DNA of 42,000 nt from the IMG/VR virus record IMGVR_UViG_2909262264_000004. One strand, given 5' to 3'. The DNA comes from a virus (taxonomy: Duplodnaviria; Heunggongvirae; Uroviricota; Caudoviricetes). Shown here piece after piece: positions 10,750 to 41,004 of the stretch. Both the position numbers and the translations under genes were made by a program. Within the stretch, counting starts at the first letter, position 1; each line of letters opens with the position of its first letter. The notes beneath the pieces were generated by a model that saw nothing but the letters and a program-made list of their open reading frames with translations, was not told where the DNA came from and made no database searches.

Positions 10750-11796
10750 TCAGGATGTGGGCTGGGTGTCCAGCAGTGCATAAGGGTTAAAGCGGATCAC
10801 CTCTTCGCCAAGCCAGTCATTGATGTGCTTCATGGCCTCCATGACGGGCATCAGCTCGTTAATTGCGTAAACCCGCGCGGCCTTCTCCACATCACCAAAC
10901 GCACTTTTTTCACCCGGCATCGCCCCCATCAGTTGCGGCGGGACACGGTGCGCAGCCAGCACATCATCACGGGATGCCGCCTTAACATTCATGAACTCAT
11001 CCTTTGCGGTGATCTGCTGGAACGGCAAAATTTGCACCCCCTCTTTGCCCCCGTTGGGCGCATGAATGAGCACGTTTTTAAACGCACCACCACCACGTGC
11101 ACCCTGTAACGTTTCTTTCAGGGAGTCCATGCTTTCGCGGTTTACCTGCGCTGCACCGATGTAGATGATGCACCCGGCGTGGGATCCGTTGTCGTAATAC
11201 AGTTTTCTGAACATGTCCGCCGAATGAGACAGGCTGGCCGAGAGTAATGCGCCGAGATATTCCGGCATGCCGTAGATTTCCTGGTTAATATCCGGATTCA
11301 TCAGGTGGCACACTTTGCCAGGGCGAAACTGGAACGCGTCCTTGCCATCCTGCACATACCACCATGATTCAAGATCGCTTCCGCGTCGCATGTATTTCGC
11401 CAGGGCGTGCCGTAATTTAAGCGGTTCACCGAGCATATTGCTTCGAAGCTCAAGGAATGCGTTACCGAACACAAACCAGTCCAGCGCCAGCGCCGAGAAA
11501 TCCTGCCGGGAAAGCAGCGGGTGCGGGATGTAGCAACCGAGTAATACATTGCGCTTAAAGTAAAGCGCAGACTGATGCCAGGACGTTTGCCGGGCCGCTC
11601 TTGCCAGACCGTACCAGTCCACCGGGGTTTCATACCACCGCCCGTTATCAGCACAGTACATATTGTCCAGCAGGTCATGCCCGGTCAGGCGATAAGGACC
11701 ATCAAATGTGAATGCACTGAGCGATGATTCTTTCCTGAGCGCATCAGCGAGATCAATGCGTGAACTCATGCGCACTTTTTTATTTTTTCTGCTCAT
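10750..11796 (-). CDS. Q: Portal protein (P2 gpQ family)
   Basis: 348 aa, close to P2 Q length; start overlaps the stop of the upstream P reading frame (ATGA), as in P2. Confidence 0.9.
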   Translation of the reverse strand: MSRKNKKVRMSSRIDLADALRKESSLSAFTFDGPYRLTGHDLLDNMYCADNGRWYETPVDWYGLARAARQTSWHQSALYFKRNVLLGCYIPHPLLSRQDFSALALDWFVFGNAFLELRSNMLGEPLKLRHALAKYMRRGSDLESWWYVQDGKDAFQFRPGKVCHLMNPDINQEIYGMPEYLGALLSASLSHSADMFRKLYYDNGSHAGCIIYIGAAQVNRESMDSLKETLQGARGGGAFKNVLIHAPNGGKEGVQILPFQQITAKDEFMNVKAASRDDVLAAHRVPPQLMGAMPGEKSAFGDVEKAARVYAINELMPVMEAMKHINDWLGEEVIRFNPYALLDTQPTS

Positions 11797-12415
11797 CAGA
11801 ACTCCATAACCGTGAAACGCTCGTTTTCTCCTTCGCCGCCAATTGGTTCGTTAATGACAGCAAGCATGGTCGCCCACGCAAGGTCGCCGTGGCTGATCCC
11901 CCTCGCGCGGTCCGTTTCGTAAGTGATAAAGCCGCCCGGTGTTTTCACCTTACGCACGGCGTTAAAGGCCGCGACCAGTTCGCGTTCGGCGCGATCGTAT
12001 TCCCACCGCCCGGCACGCATTATTTGCAGCATTTTCAGTACCAGCGACCGTTTTGATGACAGCGTGAAGGTGTACGGAATAGCAGCAGGGAAAAACCGTT
12101 TCACTATCTGATAAACAGCCTCCCCGTTCCCGCCCGTCACATCAATACCGATGTGTTCCACGTTGTAGCGACACGTGAACTCTTCAATGACTCTGGCCTG
12201 TTCTTCAAACTCCAGCCCCTGAACGCGTCGCGTCTCCACCGTTCGAAAACGGCCACCAGGAACAGCCGGAGGAACCACCACGGACACAGCGCCGCTGTCG
12301 CCGTTGCCACTGCTGCCGTTTGCGTCATACCCAATCCATACCGGACGATTTCCCATCGGGCGGGGAGCAAAAGGTTTCCAGTCTTTCCAGTCGTCGTATC
12401 CGTCAACGCCGCAGC
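11684..12415. repeat. 732-bp direct repeat, copy 1
   Basis: Identical to 15055-15786 over the stretches compared by eye. Covers the Q 5' end and the P 3' end. Confidence 0.9.
11796..12415 (-). pseudogene. Terminase large subunit fragment (C-terminal ~210 aa only)
   Basis: Identical to the C-terminus of the intact terminase at 15167-16918; the 5' part is replaced by the IS21-family element at 12416. Confidence 0.8.
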
Positions 12416-12617
12416 TGCAAAATGGCATCTAAATCGATCACGGTTTGGCATTCGAATCGATCATGATTTGGCATCCATCTCCGATCACAGTTTGGCATCA
12501 CAATCGATCACGATTTGGCATGCTTCCGATCATTGATTGGCATCCTGCCAGTCACTCCGGGAATTAACTCTTTTCACCACAGTCTTCATTGCCGTGTTTA
12601 AACCAGTGGAGACGGCA

Positions 12618-14183
12618 ATGTCCAGAAAGAGAAAATCCAGGAGCACTATGGAAACCTGTTTTAAGATCCTTCAGCTCAAGTTCGACCAGAAGCTGACTAA
12701 CCGTTGTATCGGACTGACGTTACACATCAGCGCCTCAACCGTTTTTGAGGTTCTTGCACGCTTCAAAGCCTCTTCTCTGTCATGGCCATTACCTGCTGAT
12801 ATATCCCATGACACGCTGGAGAAACTCATTTACCCGCCCAAAGACACCTCTGCGTCAGAGCTTGTTATGCCTGACATGCTGTACTTCGATACGGAAATGA
12901 GAAAACCGGGCGTGACGCGCCAGCTGTTGTGGATGGAATACAAGGCACAGGCGAGTGACAAAGCGATGGGATACTCGCACTTCTGCCGTTGCTACCGGGA
13001 GTGGAAAAAAACGCGACGCCTCTCCATGCGCCAGGAGCATCGTGCCGGCGAAAAGCTCTTTATCGACTTCTGCGGTCCTACGGTTCCTGTTATTAATCCG
13101 GACACCGGAGAGATACGCCGCGTGGCAATCTTCGTGGCCGTGATGGGGGCATCCAACTATACCTACGTTGAAGCGTGCGAAGGTCAGGACATGATGTCAT
13201 GGTTAAATGCCCACAGCCGTTGCCTGACCTTCCTGGGCGGCGTGCCGAAGCTGCTCATCCCCGATAATCTCAAAAGTGCAGTCAAAAAAGCCGATCGCTA
13301 TGAGCCTGTCATCAACGACAGTTATCAGGCGCTGGCTGAGCACTATGGCACGGTTATTATCCCGGCCCGCCCGCGCAAACCTAAAGATAAACCAAAAGCA
13401 GAAAACGGCGTCCTCATCGTCGAACGATGGCTTCTTGCCCGCATCCGTAATGAAACCTTCCACACGCTCAGGGCGCTGAATGCGCGCCTTCGGGAGTTAC
13501 TGACGGACATGAATAACCGGCCAATGAAGGGGTACGGCAATCAAACCCGTGCAGAACGCTTCCGCATGCTGGATGCGCCAGCACTCTCTCCGCTGCCTCT
13601 GGCACCTTATGAATACACGGAATACAAAGCCGTGAAGGTTGGCCCTGACTATCACGTTGAATATGCCCGTCACTGGTACTCCGTTCCACACGAACTGGTC
13701 GGTCAGCGTCTGTCACTGAAGGCGGGGCAGTCTGTGGTACAACTCTGGCACAAGGGGCAGTGTGTGGCGCAACATCCGCGCAGCACACATGAATATAAAC
13801 ACACAACCAATCCGCTTCACATGCCAGAGCGCCACCGGCAGCACGGGACATGGACACCGGAACGCCTGATCGAGCAGGGGAAACGTACGGGCCCGTCCAC
13901 AGGCCGGGTGGTTGAATCCATGCTGAAGGCAAAACCCCATCCGGAACTGGCTTATCGTGCAGTTCTGGGGCTGCTGGCACTTCAGAAAAAATACGGCCCG
14001 GAACGACTGGAAAAGGCCTGTTACGTTGCCCTGCACTATAACGCCCCTGACAGACGCTTTATCGACAATCTGCTGCGTCACCATCGGGAGAACCTGGAGC
14101 TTCCATTATCCCGCCAGGGCGAACAACATCCGACATATGCTTCAGAGCATGAAAACCTGCGTGGTCCGGGCTACTACCACTGA
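12618..14183 (+). CDS. istA: IS21-family transposase IstA
   Basis: ATG at 12618 with ggaga RBS; N-terminal HTH, central DDE region; upstream of and overlapping istB as in IS21-family elements. Confidence 0.85.
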   Translation: MSRKRKSRSTMETCFKILQLKFDQKLTNRCIGLTLHISASTVFEVLARFKASSLSWPLPADISHDTLEKLIYPPKDTSASELVMPDMLYFDTEMRKPGVTRQLLWMEYKAQASDKAMGYSHFCRCYREWKKTRRLSMRQEHRAGEKLFIDFCGPTVPVINPDTGEIRRVAIFVAVMGASNYTYVEACEGQDMMSWLNAHSRCLTFLGGVPKLLIPDNLKSAVKKADRYEPVINDSYQALAEHYGTVIIPARPRKPKDKPKAENGVLIVERWLLARIRNETFHTLRALNARLRELLTDMNNRPMKGYGNQTRAERFRMLDAPALSPLPLAPYEYTEYKAVKVGPDYHVEYARHWYSVPHELVGQRLSLKAGQSVVQLWHKGQCVAQHPRSTHEYKHTTNPLHMPERHRQHGTWTPERLIEQGKRTGPSTGRVVESMLKAKPHPELAYRAVLGLLALQKKYGPERLEKACYVALHYNAPDRRFIDNLLRHHRENLELPLSRQGEQHPTYASEHENLRGPGYYH

Positions 14184-14199
14184 CAGAAGGAACAACAGT

Positions 14200-14955
14200 A
14201 TGAGTGATAACCTGTTAAACAAACTGACCCAACTGAAACTCCCGGCGATGGCCGGGAGCCTGATACGGCAGCGGGAAACGCCTCAGACCTACGACGAACT
14301 GTCGTTCGAGGAAAGGCTGACGCTGCTGGTTGATGACGAGCTTCTGAGCAGGGAAAACAGCCGTGTGGCACGGTTGAGAAAAAATGCCGGCCTGAAATAC
14401 CAGGCAACACCGGAAGGGCTGCGCTATCCGGCCTCAAGAGGTCTGCGGGCTGAACAGATGAGAGAACTGCTGAACGGTCACTACATAACCCACAGGAAAA
14501 ACCTGCTGATAACCGGTCCGACAGGATGTGGCAAGAGCTGGATAGCCAATGCGCTGGGCGAACAGGCATGTCGACAGAAACACAGCGTCCGGTACTGTAG
14601 AACCGGGCGATTACTGGAACAGCTGGCTCAGGGACGTGTTGATGGCAGCTGGCTGAAATATCTGAAACAGTTGCAAAAAATACAGGTTCTAATCCTGGAC
14701 GATCTGGGGCTGGAACAGTTAAGTAACGCCCAGTGTAATGACCTTCTGGAGCTCATAGAGGATCGTTACGGACAAAGCAGCACGATAGTGGTAAGCCAGT
14801 TCCCGGTAGATAAATGGCATGGTCTGATGGAAAACCCAACAACAGCAGATGCCATCCTGGACAGACTGGTACATAACTCACACAGAGTGGTCCTTCAGGG
14901 AGAGTCCCTGAGGAAAAATCCCCCGACAGTGGAAAGCAGCGAAAAAACGAGTTAA
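14200..14955 (+). CDS. istB: IS21-family ATP-binding helper IstB
   Basis: 251 aa; Walker A GPTGCGKS and Walker B LILDDLG. Confidence 0.85.
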   Translation: MSDNLLNKLTQLKLPAMAGSLIRQRETPQTYDELSFEERLTLLVDDELLSRENSRVARLRKNAGLKYQATPEGLRYPASRGLRAEQMRELLNGHYITHRKNLLITGPTGCGKSWIANALGEQACRQKHSVRYCRTGRLLEQLAQGRVDGSWLKYLKQLQKIQVLILDDLGLEQLSNAQCNDLLELIEDRYGQSSTIVVSQFPVDKWHGLMENPTTADAILDRLVHNSHRVVLQGESLRKNPPTVESSEKTS

Positions 14956-15054
14956 AAAGCGATAGAAAAAGTTAAGTTCCCGGTTGATCGAATGTATGCG
15001 AATCGCTGATCGGACTTCGATGCCAATCCGTGATCGAATAGAGCGGAATACGCA

Positions 15055-15167
15055 GTCAGGCGATAAGGACCATCAAATGTGAATGCACTGAGCGATGATT
15101 CTTTCCTGAGCGCATCAGCGAGATCAATGCGTGAACTCATGCGCACTTTTTTATTTTTTCTGCTCAT
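15055..15167 (-). pseudogene. Portal gene 5' fragment (first 38 codons)
   Basis: Same N-terminus as the portal (MSRKNKKVRMSSRIDLADALRKESSLSAFTFDGPYRLT), then reads into IS-derived sequence (ORF 14952-15167). Confidence 0.7.
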
Positions 15168-15786
15168 CAGAACTCCATAACCGTGAAACGCTCGTTTTCT
15201 CCTTCGCCGCCAATTGGTTCGTTAATGACAGCAAGCATGGTCGCCCACGCAAGGTCGCCGTGGCTGATCCCCCTCGCGCGGTCCGTTTCGTAAGTGATAA
15301 AGCCGCCCGGTGTTTTCACCTTACGCACGGCGTTAAAGGCCGCGACCAGTTCGCGTTCGGCGCGATCGTATTCCCACCGCCCGGCACGCATTATTTGCAG
15401 CATTTTCAGTACCAGCGACCGTTTTGATGACAGCGTGAAGGTGTACGGAATAGCAGCAGGGAAAAACCGTTTCACTATCTGATAAACAGCCTCCCCGTTC
15501 CCGCCCGTCACATCAATACCGATGTGTTCCACGTTGTAGCGACACGTGAACTCTTCAATGACTCTGGCCTGTTCTTCAAACTCCAGCCCCTGAACGCGTC
15601 GCGTCTCCACCGTTCGAAAACGGCCACCAGGAACAGCCGGAGGAACCACCACGGACACAGCGCCGCTGTCGCCGTTGCCACTGCTGCCGTTTGCGTCATA
15701 CCCAATCCATACCGGACGATTTCCCATCGGGCGGGGAGCAAAAGGTTTCCAGTCTTTCCAGTCGTCGTATCCGTCAACGCCGCAGC
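15055..15786. repeat. 732-bp direct repeat, copy 2
   Basis: Duplicate of 11684-12415 immediately right of the IS. Confidence 0.9.
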
Positions 15787-36016: not shown

Positions 36017-37126
36017 ATGACCGATACCACCATGCAATTGCTCAGTCAGAGCACAGACCCCGTGAAAATGCCGGATTTTGATATTCTCGCGGAGGGGGAA
36101 ACACTGTCCGGCGTGGCAGAGCGCCTGATGAGCCTGTCACTGACCGACAACCGGGGATTTGAAGCGGACCAGCTCACCATCACGCTGGATGATGCGGATG
36201 GTCAGTTGCAGCTACCGCCACGGGGCGCGCGCCTGACGGTTCTCATTGGCTGGAAAGGAGAACCGCTGACAGAAAAAGGCACTTACATTGTTGATGAAAT
36301 CGCACACGAAGGACCGCCGGACAGGCTGACTGTTTCAGCCAGAAGCGCAGATTTTCGGGATGAATTTAACGTTAAACGTGAGGTGTCCTGGCATGATGTG
36401 ACCGTTGAGCGCGTGGTATCCGCCATCGCTCATCGGTACGGTCTGAAACCACAAATCAGCGAAATGCTGATGGATATTGAAATCGACCACGCCGACCAGA
36501 CCGAAGAAAGCGACATGTCCTTCCTTACGCGCATGGCGGAAATGCTGGGCGCAATCACTACGGTAAAAAGCGGTAATCTGTTATTCATCATGCCAGGCGG
36601 TGGCGTGAACGCACAAGGCCAGCCGTTGCCCTCGTTCGCCATCACGCGCAGCAGTGGCGATCGCCATCAGTTCCGCATTGCTGACCGCGAAGCGTATACG
36701 GGGGTACGCGCTTACTGGCTTGATCTTAATTACGGGAAAAAGAAAAAAGTCAGCGTGAAACGCCGCAAACCGCCAAAACCCAAAAAGGAGAAAAGCAGCA
36801 GCCGTGAAGGTGATTATATGGAAGGCGCGGAAGGCAATGTGTTTGTGTTACGCAAGACTTATCAGAACGAGCAGGCAGCAAGACGCGCAGCGGCGGCAAA
36901 GTGGCAGCAGCTACAACGCGGAGCCGCATCATTTTCCATCACGCTGGCGCGTGGACGTGCAGAACTCTACCCCGAAATGCATGGCACGGTAACAGGATTT
37001 AAAAGCGAGATTGATAATCAGGACTGGATTATTGCGAAAGCCGAGCACACCATTGATAACAGCGGCTTTACCACGCAGCTTGAGCTTGAAGCAAAAATCC
37101 CGGAATGGATAGCAGAAACAGAGTGA
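36017..37126 (+). CDS. D: Late gene D protein (P2 gpD family)
   Basis: ATG at 36017 after gggagg; 369 aa; immediately upstream of ogr. Confidence 0.85.
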   Translation: MTDTTMQLLSQSTDPVKMPDFDILAEGETLSGVAERLMSLSLTDNRGFEADQLTITLDDADGQLQLPPRGARLTVLIGWKGEPLTEKGTYIVDEIAHEGPPDRLTVSARSADFRDEFNVKREVSWHDVTVERVVSAIAHRYGLKPQISEMLMDIEIDHADQTEESDMSFLTRMAEMLGAITTVKSGNLLFIMPGGGVNAQGQPLPSFAITRSSGDRHQFRIADREAYTGVRAYWLDLNYGKKKKVSVKRRKPPKPKKEKSSSREGDYMEGAEGNVFVLRKTYQNEQAARRAAAAKWQQLQRGAASFSITLARGRAELYPEMHGTVTGFKSEIDNQDWIIAKAEHTIDNSGFTTQLELEAKIPEWIAETE

Positions 37127-37168
37127 GCAACTTAGAATAGCGGCAGCACCACGTTAAGGGAGGTCGCT

Positions 37169-37429
37169 ATGTTCCGTTGTCCGCTTTGTGGCGCATCTGC
37201 CCGTATCCGCACCAGTCGTTCGGAAAATGATTCAAACACCGTACGGAAAAAATATTACCAGTGTAACAACCTGGAATGCGGCATAAGTTTCTCAACACTG
37301 GAAGCTTTCCATAAATTCACATCGAAACACGCCCCCGGCGTTCACTCTTCAGAAGGTATCCCGTGGCATGAGTTGCCAGCTTCACACAGGGGAAACAATC
37401 AGATGAGTTTGCCTTTACCTCAGAATTAA
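37169..37429 (+). CDS. ogr: Late-gene transcription activator, Ogr/Delta zinc finger
   Basis: MFRCPLCGASARIRTSR...KKYYQCNNLECGISF: C-x2-C ... C-x4-C pattern of Ogr. Confidence 0.85.
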   Translation: MFRCPLCGASARIRTSRSENDSNTVRKKYYQCNNLECGISFSTLEAFHKFTSKHAPGVHSSEGIPWHELPASHRGNNQMSLPLPQN

Positions 37430-37619
37430 CAGGCAGAATTGCCGGAGTAACAAAAAAGCGATAGATTACGCGCGGGTGCCTTTCGGCTGATGGTCGGAGG
37501 GAATACCCGAAGGCCAGATGTGGAAAGGCCCCGGAAAACATTTCTGTTTAACCGAGGCCCTAACCGTCTAACCTTAGCAAGTGATAGGTTAGCGCCTCCC
37601 TGAAAAAGGAGCAAGCGCT

Positions 37620-37760
37620 ATGTCGCAAAAATCGCTTACGGCCATCACGTTCTGCGTGACGGCAATCCTCATCATCTGGATGCTGCACGGTTCGCTGTGC
37701 GAAATACGGATGAGCTTCTGGGGAGCGGAGTTTGCGGCGTTCTTACAGTGTAAGCAGTAA
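37620..37760 (+). CDS. hok: Hok/Gef-family type I toxin-like membrane peptide
   Basis: 46 aa, below the ORF-track cutoff. aaggag RBS; one TM helix then SLCEIR..EFAAFLQCK, matching the Hok/Gef signature. Leader has a 7-bp-stem hairpin (ctaacct..aggttag). Confidence 0.65.
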   Translation: MSQKSLTAITFCVTAILIIWMLHGSLCEIRMSFWGAEFAAFLQCKQ

Positions 37761-37822
37761 GGAAACCGCGACGGGGGAGCAATCCCCCGTCAATCGGTTG
37801 CCAGGGTAAGGTCGATAAGGCA

Positions 37823-37833
37823 CCCTATCTCAC
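37823..37833. repeat. 11-bp direct repeat ccctatctcac (left)
   Basis: Identical copy at 39319-39329; both lie just outside the inverted ~115-bp repeats. Confidence 0.5.
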
Positions 37834-37952
37834 CAATGCCGTTCAGTTAGTTAAGGAATTGAGGTTCGATAGCCCGAACCTCGCGCAGAGGCAATATGAC
37901 CGAAAGCCTGATTCCTTAATGCCCAAGATGAGTCTCTATTCATAAAAGCGCT
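37834..37952. repeat. Terminal inverted repeat, left (~115 bp, internally palindromic)
   Basis: Matches the reverse complement of 39209-39318 with a few mismatches and one 4-nt indel. Contains an 8-bp-stem hairpin (gaggttcg..cgaacctc) and ttaaggaat..attccttaa arms. Confidence 0.7.
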
Positions 37953-38169
37953 TAACTACTCGACATTGGCGGTGTATCCCCCGCATTGTCTGAATGCCGC
38001 CTCTTACCTTTCGCGGTCAACTGACGACTTCTAGTTCTAGAACGCCTTGATTTTTTGTACTTGTACATTGAAAAATAACCATAAATTGTTAGCCTGTGCA
38101 GTAGACTCAGTGGCGGTAACTGGTCAGCATGAAGTGTAAAGTGAATAACGAAGCTCTAAAATTATAGGG

Positions 38170-39003
38170 ATGGTCATGAATAATAAGCTAAAGGTAATTG
38201 AGTTAAATAGTCTTGATCTGTTTCGTAAAGAATTACTAACTACTATAAAGCCAGAGAAAGTAGAGAAATTACTTAGATGGTATCTTCAATCATATGGCGG
38301 TGTTAATTTCAAGTTCGGTTATGACAGACCAATTTTTAGAGCGCGAAAGTGCCCAAATGAATGCGGATATAATAACATCAGTGAGATATATCCCCCTCCA
38401 CCAGAAAAATGTAAAATAGGCCGAATGAATGATGATGGACAAGCTATCTTCTATGGCGCTTATAGTATCGGAACAGCTTTAGCCGAAATTAATGCAAAAG
38501 AAGGGGATTATGTTCACATAGCTCACTTTAAGATGCCGGAAAATTCAGAGTCTGGAATGCGATGTTTTGCTATCGGTGAGGTCTTTAATGTGTATCACGG
38601 TGTAAATACAATTTCAATTGAAGTGTTTAATGAAATTCGCGACATCATTAGCAGAATTGGTAAGGACGACATCCGAGCTTTGCTATCATATTTGTATATG
38701 GATGCCCTTTCTGCTGAGTTGCTTAATAGTATCAATGCCCATGAGGTAAATTATATTTACTCAAGAATTTTTTGCCGTCTTCTTCTTGATAAATACCCTG
38801 ATGTTGATGGTCTTATTTATCCTAGCGCTAAAATAAAAGGGGCCTCAAATATCGCTTTGCGCACAGAAACAGTTAAATCGAGAATGCATTTAGTTGCTAA
38901 TCTTGTGTTTAAAGTAAATAAAATTTATCCATATGGAATAGTAGATTTCAGTATAGTAAAACAAGCCAAAGGACATACATCAGATGGGCGCATCGTTTGG
39001 TGA
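38170..39003 (+). CDS. RES-domain protein (NAD+-targeting toxin family)
   Basis: 277 aa (ATG at 38176 has the better RBS). GRMNDDGQAIFYGAYSIGTALAE and GLIYPSAKIKGASNIAL fit the Arg...Glu...Ser RES signature as recalled. No antitoxin-like ORF adjacent. Confidence 0.55.
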   Translation: MVMNNKLKVIELNSLDLFRKELLTTIKPEKVEKLLRWYLQSYGGVNFKFGYDRPIFRARKCPNECGYNNISEIYPPPPEKCKIGRMNDDGQAIFYGAYSIGTALAEINAKEGDYVHIAHFKMPENSESGMRCFAIGEVFNVYHGVNTISIEVFNEIRDIISRIGKDDIRALLSYLYMDALSAELLNSINAHEVNYIYSRIFCRLLLDKYPDVDGLIYPSAKIKGASNIALRTETVKSRMHLVANLVFKVNKIYPYGIVDFSIVKQAKGHTSDGRIVW

Positions 39004-39208
39004 GCCAAACTTTTAGTTAGCTGATTGAAAAACCGATGCGTCAGTTTGCACTGCATGTGGTGTATGGGAAGCGCGGGCTTGTAGTGCAGGTCATTTCAGA
39101 AGAAGCTAACGAGAAAGCTTAGACATACTGTGACTACTAAACAAGCAGAAAGCCCGTGTTTATGGGGGGCAATCCACACAACAGGCGATGTCGATTAGTT
39201 AATACACT

Positions 39209-39318
39209 TGTATGAATAGAGACTCATTTTTGTGCATTAAGGAATCAGGCTTTCAGTCATCTTGCCTCTGCGCGAGGTTCGGGCTATCGAACCTCAATTC
39301 CTTAACTGAACTACATTG
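39209..39318. repeat. Terminal inverted repeat, right
   Basis: Reverse complement of 37841-37952. Confidence 0.7.
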
Positions 39319-39329
39319 CCCTATCTCAC
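39319..39329. repeat. 11-bp direct repeat ccctatctcac (right)
   Basis: Identical to 37823-37833. Confidence 0.5.
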
Positions 39330-39516
39330 AGCTCTAAATGCAAAAATCCCATGAAACTGTGGGTATTTCATTACACACTGACACTGCTCTACCTTTCTAT
39401 ATGTATCACTCTAAACCAGTTAATCAATTGGCACTTATCAACAACAAAAAATCTGATAAAATTAAAATGTTTTGTAACAAATTTCAGCTTGTAGTGTTCC
39501 AAAGGAGACGGATTAC

Positions 39517-39849
39517 ATGGCATTAATCAAATGTCCTGAATGCCAGAAAGAGGTCAGCGATTCAGCATTATGTTGCCCTGCTTGTGGTAAACAACTGAAA
39601 AAACTTAAGCGTTCATTTTTTGGAAAACTCATTAAATGGGCTTTTATATTTTTTAATATTTTTATGATCTATACACTTTTAGTTGGACTAGGAGGCGCTG
39701 ATGAAATAATAAACAATACCACATCCGATGCCGAAAAAGCTGGGGCAGTTATTGGTACGGGCTTAGGTTTAATTGCCATTGGAGGCTTATGGGTTATTGG
39801 CGATATAATTATCGGAATTTTAGTGTTTCTTACTAAACCAAAGGGATAA
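39517..39849 (+). CDS. Zinc-ribbon membrane protein
   Basis: aaaggaga RBS; N-terminal CPEC...CPAC zinc ribbon then two hydrophobic helices; AT-rich. Confidence 0.5.
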   Translation: MALIKCPECQKEVSDSALCCPACGKQLKKLKRSFFGKLIKWAFIFFNIFMIYTLLVGLGGADEIINNTTSDAEKAGAVIGTGLGLIAIGGLWVIGDIIIGILVFLTKPKG

Positions 39850-39853
39850 TAAA

Positions 39854-40747
39854 ATGAAAAATATGATTTTTTCTATAGGTGCATTATTTATATCAATTAG
39901 TGTACTGCCTGTTCACGCAGCAACTGAACATAAGAATTTCAATGCAGTGCTCCAGTGCCGAGCGATAGAAAACAATAAAGACAGACTTTCTTGTTACGAT
40001 AAGTCAATACAACCGACTCGAACGAAAGTTGCTGAAAAATTTGAAAGCAGGGATCAATGCCCTGATGAGAAAGATGATGACAAACGTTTATCTTGTTATG
40101 ATCGTTTTTTTTCTCCAACATTTACTCCATCTGTAAACTCAAAATCTAAAACGGAAAAGCTAGTAACAACAGAGGCTCAGCAACCAAATCTTTCTGAAAT
40201 ATCTAAATGCCGAGCAGAAAATGATAAAGAAGCCAGACTAAACTGCTACGATAAACTATTCCCACAGAATGAAGCTGTTCAATCTGAATCACAATTAGAG
40301 AAAGCCACAGATGCAGGAAAATGGCACACGTCCATTACTACATCGCCAATTGATGATTCGAAAAATGTAATTTTATCGTTAGAAAGTGATGATTATATCA
40401 GAACTCCATTTGGAGAAGCTGTTACTCCCACTCTGTTTATAGCTTGCCGAGAAAAGAAAACCGAAGTATTTCTTAGTTGGGATGTATATTTAGGCCTTGA
40501 ACAAACCAGCATGCTGTATCGTCTTGATAAACAGAAAGCAGTTGAAAGAAACTGGCTAATATCTACAGATACAAAGGCTGTTTTTTATAAAGGTAATGAT
40601 ATTGATTTCATAAGAAAACTTGCCAACTCACATAAAATGTACACAAAAATAACCCCCTATAATGAAAGCCCTGTAAGTGCAACTTTCAATTTAAGCGGCC
40701 TGTCAAATGCACTAAAACCGCTTCAAGATGCTTGTAACTGGAAATAG
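39854..40747 (+). CDS. Secreted protein with three tandem Cys-containing repeats
   Basis: Signal peptide ending VHA-A; three repeats of C-x(11-13)-(R/K)L(S/N)CYD(K/R); 4 nt after the upstream gene. Confidence 0.5.
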   Translation: MKNMIFSIGALFISISVLPVHAATEHKNFNAVLQCRAIENNKDRLSCYDKSIQPTRTKVAEKFESRDQCPDEKDDDKRLSCYDRFFSPTFTPSVNSKSKTEKLVTTEAQQPNLSEISKCRAENDKEARLNCYDKLFPQNEAVQSESQLEKATDAGKWHTSITTSPIDDSKNVILSLESDDYIRTPFGEAVTPTLFIACREKKTEVFLSWDVYLGLEQTSMLYRLDKQKAVERNWLISTDTKAVFYKGNDIDFIRKLANSHKMYTKITPYNESPVSATFNLSGLSNALKPLQDACNWK

Positions 40748-40770
40748 TATATACCTCCCCAATATCAGAT

Positions 40771-40802
40771 GACAAAACGCCCGTGAAAACGGGCGTTTTG
40801 TC
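40771..40802. terminator. Bidirectional intrinsic terminator
   Basis: Perfect palindrome gacaaaacgcccg-tgaaaa-cgggcgttttgtc. Confidence 0.6.
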
Positions 40803-41004
40803 ATCTGTAACTCGAAAATGTGGTCATTGCGTGGACATACGATGATATAAATCCTTTTATATCAAAAGATTAAACCACTATTATTTTCCTCAACAAGGAT
40901 TTTCACGTTTGTGTTACCTGTATGAGACGAGAGTTAACCGGACAAGTGTGCCATAATCTCGCGGCCAGGCATACTTGCGAAGATTTCAGGTATAAGGATA
41001 CGTA

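Follow-up and report, generated by a model that had tools for sequence, protein, structure and literature searches.

Mobile insertion cassettes (MICs) are transposable units in which two bracketing inverted repeats of an insertion sequence enclose a passenger and no transposase gene is present (PMC3913671). The first of them, MIC231 of Bacillus cereus, is an IS4-family (IS231) derivative that is moved in trans by the IS231A transposase (PMC3913671, PMC2266710). The IS4 subgroup has ends of the form -AATR--------WTW---- and direct repeats of 10-13 bp (PMC2266710, Table 1); passenger-carrying forms had not been reported for this subgroup as of 2008 (PMC2266710). Transposable elements were called "almost nonexistent" in P2-like phages in a 2026 paper (PMC13586616). 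The locus that we describe here is a documented counter-example, with empty, filled, two-gene, one-ended and collapsed alleles all at hand. It is a 1.5-kb unit (positions 37823-39329) in a 42,000-nt stretch of DNA, virus record IMGVR_UViG_2909262264_000004, hereafter the window, and its sole substantial open reading frame (ORF) encodes a RES-domain protein. We consider it likely that the unit is a non-autonomous transposable element of MIC type, derived from the IS4 subgroup and carrying the RES gene as its passenger within a P2-family prophage.

Alleles of the insertion site

The window is Escherichia coli chromosome and is 100% identical to strain WAT. The left arm of the unit begins at 37834, and the right arm, which is the reverse complement of the left, ends at 39318. 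A gapless repeat finder returned three inverted-repeat blocks (37834-37849/39303-39318, 16 nt, 88%; 37849-37926/39230-39307, 78 nt, 96%; 37925-37948/39207-39230, 24 nt, 92%); these are a single ~115-nt inverted repeat split by a 4-nt and a 1-nt indel, and in gapped alignment the homology of the two arms extends over ~135 nt and weakly to ~175 nt. The 11-mer CCCTATCTCAC abuts both outer ends (37823-37833 and 39319-39329) as an exact repeat; there are exactly two copies in the 42-kb window and no further copy on either strand, and the chance of an 11-mer recurring at the exact mirrored boundary is ~4^-11. An earlier note on this DNA, made from the letters alone, had described ~115-bp inverted arms flanked by identical 11-mers; both features are confirmed, and the arms prove longer than it stated.

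The same note had read this layout as a transposon with a target-site duplication, and the empty sites bear it out. The two flanks were joined through a single 11-mer and run as a query against E. coli genomes. At least 124 genomes gave a contiguous match, and two of them, strains C7 and 503025, were inspected base by base; they read ...GATAAGGCACCCTATCTCACAGCTCTAAATGC..., that is, hok, one 11-mer and then the zinc-ribbon gene. Since the empty sites carry a single CCCTATCTCAC, the unit is a true insertion that duplicated its target. Of 5426 complete E. coli genomes, 66 contain the arm, each with exactly two copies, and the flanks are the same in all 66. A third state of the site is seen in a metagenome contig (L145, 2966-3039), in which the same 11-bp duplication encloses a collapsed element of 74 bp that forms a perfect hairpin (DNA fold energy -27 kcal/mol, z = -13.8). 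Its interior was lost through deletion between the palindromic cores of both arms, thus such a deletion can convert the cassette into a foldback resembling a miniature inverted-repeat transposable element (MITE). Allelic states of the window's insertion site therefore include empty, filled and collapsed ones. Further copies of the unit were absent from the plasmids searched, and among phages only P88_4B11 carries it.

Phage P88_4B11 (Xuanwuvirus, Peduoviridae) has the unit at 99.7% identity, in the gene order gpD-ogr-hok-[unit]-zinc ribbon-TagO-attP-int. The window starts at the int stop codon, and its homology to P88_4B11 stops at 40903, the attR side, just before flk. The unit is located inside this P88-like (P2-family) prophage, 1.6 kb from attR, among the accessory genes between ogr and attR, which exist around the empty alleles too. 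The earlier note had placed it next to a prophage end; it lies within the prophage, whose boundary is at ~40903. The insertion fell behind the hok terminator hairpin and ahead of the zinc-ribbon gene, so that no gene was disrupted.

IS4-type termini, relatives and decay

In E. coli K-12, IS4 has the terminal repeats TAATGCCGATCAGTTAAGGA and TAATGCCAGTCAGTTAAGCA and a 12-bp duplication on its two sides. The unit's terminal 20 bp are identical to these repeats at 18/20 and 15/20 positions. The left outer terminal inverted repeat (37834-37857, plus strand) reads CAATGCCGTTCAGTTA[GTTA]AGGA and contains a 4-nt internal duplication; it is with this duplication removed that it reaches 18/20 against the IS4 right-end repeat TAATGCCGATCAGTTAAGGA. 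The right outer repeat (39299-39318, minus strand), CAATGTAGTTCAGTTAAGGA, carries CC>TA relative to the element consensus. The sequence CAATGCCGTTCAGTTAAGGA fits the IS4-subgroup end consensus, and the 11-bp duplication falls inside the range of this subgroup. The termini and the duplication together place the unit with the IS4-subgroup derivatives, so the proposal of an unrecognised type does not hold: the unit is of MIC type or of MITE type (a miniature non-coding transposon).

The earlier note had seen no transposase in the unit, and none is there. A tblastn search with the IS4 transposase InsG gave nothing better than E = 1 against the unit, and against the window likewise returned noise only. 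In the absence of a transposase or a coding remnant (the DDE transposase with its YREK motif is missing), the unit is a derivative and not an autonomous insertion sequence. It has what defines a MIC, namely two bracketing inverted repeats, a passenger inside and no transposase gene, and also the marks of transposition, namely a target duplication, empty sites and more than one insertion site.

As an independent check, one genome per species was searched for AATGCCGNTCAGTTAAGGA, which gave at least 120 loci. InsG-like transposases stand beside the repeat in 24 of these at least 120 loci, at 45-99% identity. Among the listed loci, elements bounded by two such repeats have exact 10-12-bp duplications, both the full-length insertion sequences of 1398-1430 bp, which encode InsG-like transposases, and the MITE-size elements of 104-208 bp. 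The latter (L026, L029, L030, L054, L090, L104, L106-L109, L112, L113, L115, L116 and L121) occur in several genome assemblies, several of which hold more than one copy, and their duplications are often palindromic, for example GGGCTTGCCC and CCCTATCCAGGG. It seems that IS4-derived MITEs form an abundant family with a preference for palindromic targets.

The left arm of the unit (37834-37968, plus strand, ~135 nt) has a hairpin core at 37861-37882 and an inner inverted IS4-repeat-like motif at 37951-37968; the right arm (39186-39318, minus strand, ~133 nt) has the corresponding motif at 39186-39203 and its hairpin core at 39274-39295. On folding, each arm forms a hairpin, TTAAGGAAT...ATTCCTTAA enclosing GAGGTTCG-N6-CGAACCTC, and a comparison of seven arms reveals a compensatory change from G-C to A-T at one pair of the stem. 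The inner motif, which as reverse complement is CAATGTCGAGTAGTTAAGC, is of the TTAAGC type like the IS4 left-end repeat and matches the IS4 repeats at 16/19 positions.

Copies of the element were found at three unrelated flanks, all in P2/HP1-like prophages. The first is the site downstream of hok in the window, the second is the ogr terminator (L015, L016, L017 and L023), and the third is an HP1/P2-like prophage, L022. At the ogr terminator, L017 retains a decayed 12-bp duplication matching at 9/12 positions, and L015 and L016 (Enterobacter cloacae P2-like prophage) and L023 have one arm left. The interior of the element lies in opposite orientations in L017 and L015 at the same site, consistent with an inversion in which the long inverted arms recombined with each other; one arm, the zinc-ribbon gene and ~290 bp of flank were afterwards lost from L015 and L023. 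L017 is the same element at 85% nucleotide identity, measures 2.4 kb and has two genes, the second of which follows the RES gene and encodes a 292-305-aa protein with a C-terminal CxxC...CxxC zinc ribbon.

The alignment to L017 is split: window 37834-39049 corresponds to L017 612-1835 and window 39050-39320 to L017 2733-3010, which means that the window copy has suffered an 897-bp deletion. What is left of the second gene is a 3' relic at 39050-39122 (plus strand), its last ~24 codons (...LHVVYGKRGLVVQVISEEANEKA*), in which the ribbon Cys codons are mutated. The RES gene had been called the only gene inside; it is indeed the sole substantial ORF, but that it stands alone in this element is partly the outcome of the deletion. 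The available copies form a derivative series from the two-gene L017 through the RES-only window copy and the one-ended L015 and L023 to the collapsed hairpin of L145. RES homologues without arms (Lelliottia, Citrobacter and others) align to the window only across 38051-39001; this segment is therefore the passenger, and 37834-38050 together with ~39050-39318 is backbone plus relic. Accordingly, the left spacer at 37969-38050, common to L015, L017 and L022 and covered by the element homology, belongs to the element, and the right spacer at 39123-39185 lies within the block that aligns to the L017 right end. The upstream region at 38051-38169 (plus strand) accompanies the RES ORF in every context, including the arm-less Lelliottia L006 and L018, and presumably contains its own promoter, although a consensus scan found no sigma-70-like site upstream of the ORF.

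The two arms of the window copy share an 11-nt deletion and several substitutions that are not in other copies; they are 86% identical to each other and 71-77% identical to the arms of other copies. These shared changes point to gene conversion between the arms. Both tips are damaged relative to the consensus CAATGCCGTTCAGTTAAGGAAT of intact related copies, the left by the 4-nt duplication and the right by the CC>TA change. Taken with the single site in E. coli, the damaged tips make the window copy most likely a fossil that spreads only with its phage, and it is probably immobile now. The idea of a mobilisable cassette stands for the past, as the three unrelated flanks attest; of current movement in E. 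coli there is no sign.

The RES-domain passenger

The RES domain is named after an Arg-Glu-Ser signature (PMC2701414). The RES toxins that have been characterised act as NAD+ phosphorylases or NADases, or they ADP-ribosylate Prs; NatT has an inserted "Flap" and is not toxic alone, and the physiological role of the family has been called unresolved, with no link made to immunity (PMC11535050). The ORF at 38170-39003 (plus strand, 277 aa; 275 aa from the NCBI PGAP start at 38176) matches the Pfam family RES (PF08808) with E = 4.5e-12 and 46.7 bits, well above the curated cut-off of 23.2, so that the domain assignment made from the letters holds; PGAP annotates it as "RES family NAD+ phosphorylase". 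A search found 46 homologues, nearly all of 274-289 aa and aligning end to end (Enterobacterales, Aeromonas, Rheinheimera, Neptunomonas and others). The residues G84-R85-x-N87, E106 and S219 do not vary among 34 homologues at 53-90% identity. From the order and position of their motifs, R85 (in GRMN), E106 (in ALAEIN) and S219 (in YPSAK) are assigned as the Arg-Glu-Ser signature, and this triad is intact in the window. The ratio of non-synonymous to synonymous substitution rates (dN/dS) is 0.06-0.20 overall, which by sequence comparison indicates purifying selection on the protein. A profile search of 1.84 billion cluster representatives gave 358 relatives at E<=1e-10; the best 150 of the 358 are mostly full-length (265-325 aa). 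With so many full-length relatives, this "long RES" protein represents a sizeable uncharacterised family.

An AlphaFold2 model was obtained with a mean pLDDT of 87.5 and a pTM of 0.85. The model predicts with high confidence that the protein adopts the MbcT/NatT/ParT fold (RES/ADP-ribosyltransferase-like); fold comparison retrieves the RES toxins, which a sequence-profile search of the PDB had missed. The protein has a 75-aa N-terminal extension, with two N-terminal helices (residues 12-39), and a helical insert (residues 150-208). A Pfam search of the extension and the insert returned nothing, including no DUF2384/Xre-like toxin-binding domain; the candidate reading of an antitoxin fused into the RES protein is thus unsupported and was rejected.

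As the note had observed for the unit, an Xre-like partner is missing: no Xre/COG5642 gene was found in the unit, in its flanks or beside homologues in eight contexts, and no neighbour gene is common across the RES-homologue contexts examined. All Enterobacterales contexts lie on or beside mobile elements, namely P2-like prophages, an integrase-bounded island, a conjugative-element-like region and an islet beside a prophage end. The RES and zinc-ribbon genes are adjacent again in L018-L021, beside an integrase, but each also occurs alone elsewhere at 81-83% amino acid identity, and they therefore appear to be separable accessory modules rather than an obligate pair.

The second gene is found at L017 1891-2808, at L018 6943-7818 and at 4001-48xx in L147, L150 and L153. 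Its ~290-aa zinc-ribbon product has no Pfam, PADLOC or PHROG family, and belongs to a large proteobacterial family (269 matches). The gene also occurs alone in integrase-bounded islands, and in Vibrio it lies beside an ADP-ribosyl-exotoxin-family gene, near SIR2 and ParA-like genes. The gene may itself be an island or defence gene that is as yet uncharacterised.

We propose, as the most likely role of the RES protein, that it is active as an NAD+-consuming or ADP-ribosylating enzyme and would give the prophage an advantage when it competes with other phages or elements. The protein probably restrains this activity intramolecularly, through its N-terminal extension and helical insert, rather than being restrained by an Xre antitoxin. 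The distribution of its homologues on mobile elements suggests a role in conflict between such elements. The abortive-infection or addiction function that the earlier note had in mind is pure conjecture. We also raise, as a doubtful and speculative possibility, that the ~275-aa RES protein is a new single-gene anti-phage or anti-satellite effector, which would kill or arrest the cell through NAD+ consumption, and that transposase-less IS4-type cassettes offer a hidden shuttle route into the accessory regions of P2/HP1-like phages. If this were true, surveys that look for transposase genes would miss such gene transfer.

Competing readings and a proposed history

Several observations weigh against a MIC of the IS4 subgroup with an active RES passenger. 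No parent insertion sequence, or element with a matching transposase, was found, and among the at least 120 listed loci at most 31 nt are shared with the arms; non-detection among these loci is weak evidence of absence. A metagenome search gave three loci, all E. coli-type copies, and no parent insertion sequence. The arm homology, at 135-175 nt, greatly exceeds the 18-bp repeats of IS4, and E. coli genomes carry the unit at a single site, with no sign of recent transposition. On the side of the passenger, the RES protein has no match in PADLOC-DB 2.0, PHROGs or NCBIfam. In P88_4B11, a C-run of the RES gene (L004 6354-7180) has a 1-bp deletion, equivalent to window position 38398, that leaves two ORFs in place of one; the gene may be dispensable and really inactivated there, or the frameshift may be a homopolymer sequencing error. 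The inner IS4-like motif of each arm, moreover, permits the unit to be read as a composite in which two inverted complete ~135-bp IS4-type MITEs trapped foreign DNA, a miniature counterpart of Tn10 or Tn5. The arm length of 133-135 nt, within the size range of MITEs with the same repeat elsewhere, is in keeping with such a composite. Nevertheless, the left/right homology runs ~40 nt past the inner motif, this motif is more degenerate in L017, and a solitary arm is absent from the 5426 E. coli genomes, the plasmids, viral contigs, metagenomes and the at least 120 listed genome loci. We regard the composite as possible but clearly less probable than a cassette. Both readings make the unit a non-autonomous element of IS4 type.

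A degraded two-gene toxin-antitoxin or addiction module, in which the zinc-ribbon protein was the antitoxin or regulator and the RES gene is now silent, inactive or tolerated, would account for the second-gene relic in the window, for the two genes standing ~100 bp apart in two unrelated contexts (L017; L018-L021) and for the zinc-ribbon homologue beside an ADP-ribosyl-toxin gene in the Vibrio island. We think it improbable, considering that the RES gene stands alone in Lelliottia (83% amino acid identity), Citrobacter, an E. coli conjugative-element-like island, Aeromonas and Neptunomonas, that the zinc-ribbon protein stands alone in Pectobacterium (81%) and Burkholderia, and that the RES ORF is intact, with invariant catalytic residues and a dN/dS of 0.12-0.20 among cassette-borne copies. 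The variable accessory-gene region of a P2-like phage and the hairpin in each arm might also suggest an ordinary phage moron acquired by illegitimate recombination, its inverted repeats mere structured or terminator DNA and its 11-mer coincidental. The precise empty site with one 11-mer, the IS4-type termini, the presence of the element at two other unrelated sites and the collapsed derivative with the same duplication leave very little room for this account. Even less credible is the idea, which the earlier note had named as its own refutation, that the arms are a dispersed enterobacterial palindromic repeat (ERIC/REP/BIME-like) flanking the gene by chance: the arms are imperfect palindromes of ~120 nt, an ERIC-like size, but they are confined to the 66 genomes that carry the unit, two in each, with no plasmid matches. 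Two more element classes were considered and rejected. For an integron attC cassette, as read from the sequence, there is no integrase, attC recombination proceeds without target duplication, and GTTAAGG misfits GTTRRRY. Tn3-type miniature elements, with their 5-bp duplications and GGGG-type ends, are likewise ruled out.

The sequences show how the element came to its present state. It inserted between the hok/sok-like locus and the zinc-ribbon gene downstream of it, where a staggered cut duplicated 11 bp of target. Its passenger originally comprised at least two genes, one for a stand-alone RES enzyme of ~275 aa, together with the upstream region of that gene, and one for a zinc-ribbon protein of ~290 aa, and the 897-bp deletion removed the second gene from the window copy. 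Later decay brought the 4-nt duplication in the left repeat, the two substitutions in the right and the 11-nt deletion common to both arms. Movement would have needed an InsG-like DDE transposase, provided in trans by some insertion sequence of the IS4 group. IS4, a common candidate helper that may act on the ends of the unit, occurs in 2480 of the 5426 E. coli genomes. The window copy would now spread with the phage only.

Prophage setting and comparison with known systems

The hok-like neighbour of the unit was correctly recognised: a hok/sok-like locus lies immediately upstream (37474-37760), with a 46-aa ORF that matches Pfam HOK_GEF (E = 4e-7) and a sok RNA model at 43.6 bits, below the gathering score of 59. 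As it is present in empty alleles, this locus is native phage cargo unrelated to the unit. An Rfam search over 36500-41000 gave this sub-threshold sok match only, and none in the arms or the ~200-bp internal flanks. Downstream, accessory genes of the P88-like phage occupy 39517-40747. One product is a zinc-ribbon protein of 110 aa whose C-terminal half is hydrophobic (phrog_6586); another, of 297 aa, has a VasI/TagO-like domain (PF11319, phrog_1848; its score is below the TIGR03360 cut-off), which is associated with type VI secretion and here occurs on a P2-like phage. The prophage also has a 3.4-kb insertion at 11677-15347, between the portal and terminase genes, which related phages including P88_4B11 do not have. 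A 300-bp direct repeat (11677-11976 and 15048-15347, 99% identical) bounds this insertion, which contains an IS21-family pair, IstA-like (12537-14183, with rve and Mu-transposase C domains) and IstB (13957-14955), and a duplicated 210-aa C-terminal fragment of the terminase (11796-12428). This insertion and the RES unit together add ~5 kb to the prophage compared with typical relatives, and packaging may be affected by the extra length.

The class of the element (MIC or MITE composite) and the protein domain are both already known. What is new is their combination, an IS4-subgroup cassette with P2/HP1-like phages as carriers and a partner-less long RES protein as passenger. An element without a transposase is invisible to transposase-based screens, and the locus places an Xre-less RES-domain enzyme on a temperate phage.

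With the known MICs (MIC231, mic-qnrD and mic-qnrS2), the unit shares insertion-sequence inverted repeats without a transposase, a target-site duplication and passenger genes with their own expression signals. It differs from them in that its ends are of the IS4 subgroup and not of IS231, its arms are 135-175 nt long and structured with an inner repeat-like motif, and its host is a P2-like phage of Enterobacteria; its mobilisation in trans is presumed. IS4 (InsG) of E. coli matches it at the tips (18/20), with a duplication of 12 bp in the K-12 copy against 11 bp in the unit; in contrast to IS4 and its subgroup, the unit lacks a transposase, and its sequence more than ~25 nt from the tips is unlike any among the at least 120 listed loci. 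Composites flanked by MITEs include the integron mobilisation units and MITE-flanked integrons of Acinetobacter. Such composites, like Tn10 and Tn5, resemble the unit in having inverted arms with transposase-recognisable ends, captured cargo and a single duplication, whereas the unit's arms are ~135 bp long and non-coding, and no solitary copies of them were found.

Compared with the toxins of RES-Xre systems (MbcT, Res of Pseudomonas putida, ParT and NatT), the passenger protein is larger (275 aa versus ~145-250 aa), adds the N-terminal extension of 75 aa and the helical insert at residues 150-208, stands without an Xre/COG5642 partner in eight contexts, and belongs to a broad family of uncharacterised full-length proteins. 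The defence hotspots described for P2-like phages are reportedly the old/tin and Z/fun loci. The unit is similar to these hotspots in that an accessory gene of a toxin-like family lies in a variable region (PMC9122126, PMC13586616). It differs in its position, since ogr is unmentioned in both papers and the ogr-att locus is apparently not among their hotspots, and in its cargo, since the RES gene arrived via transposition and RES is not a recognised defence protein.

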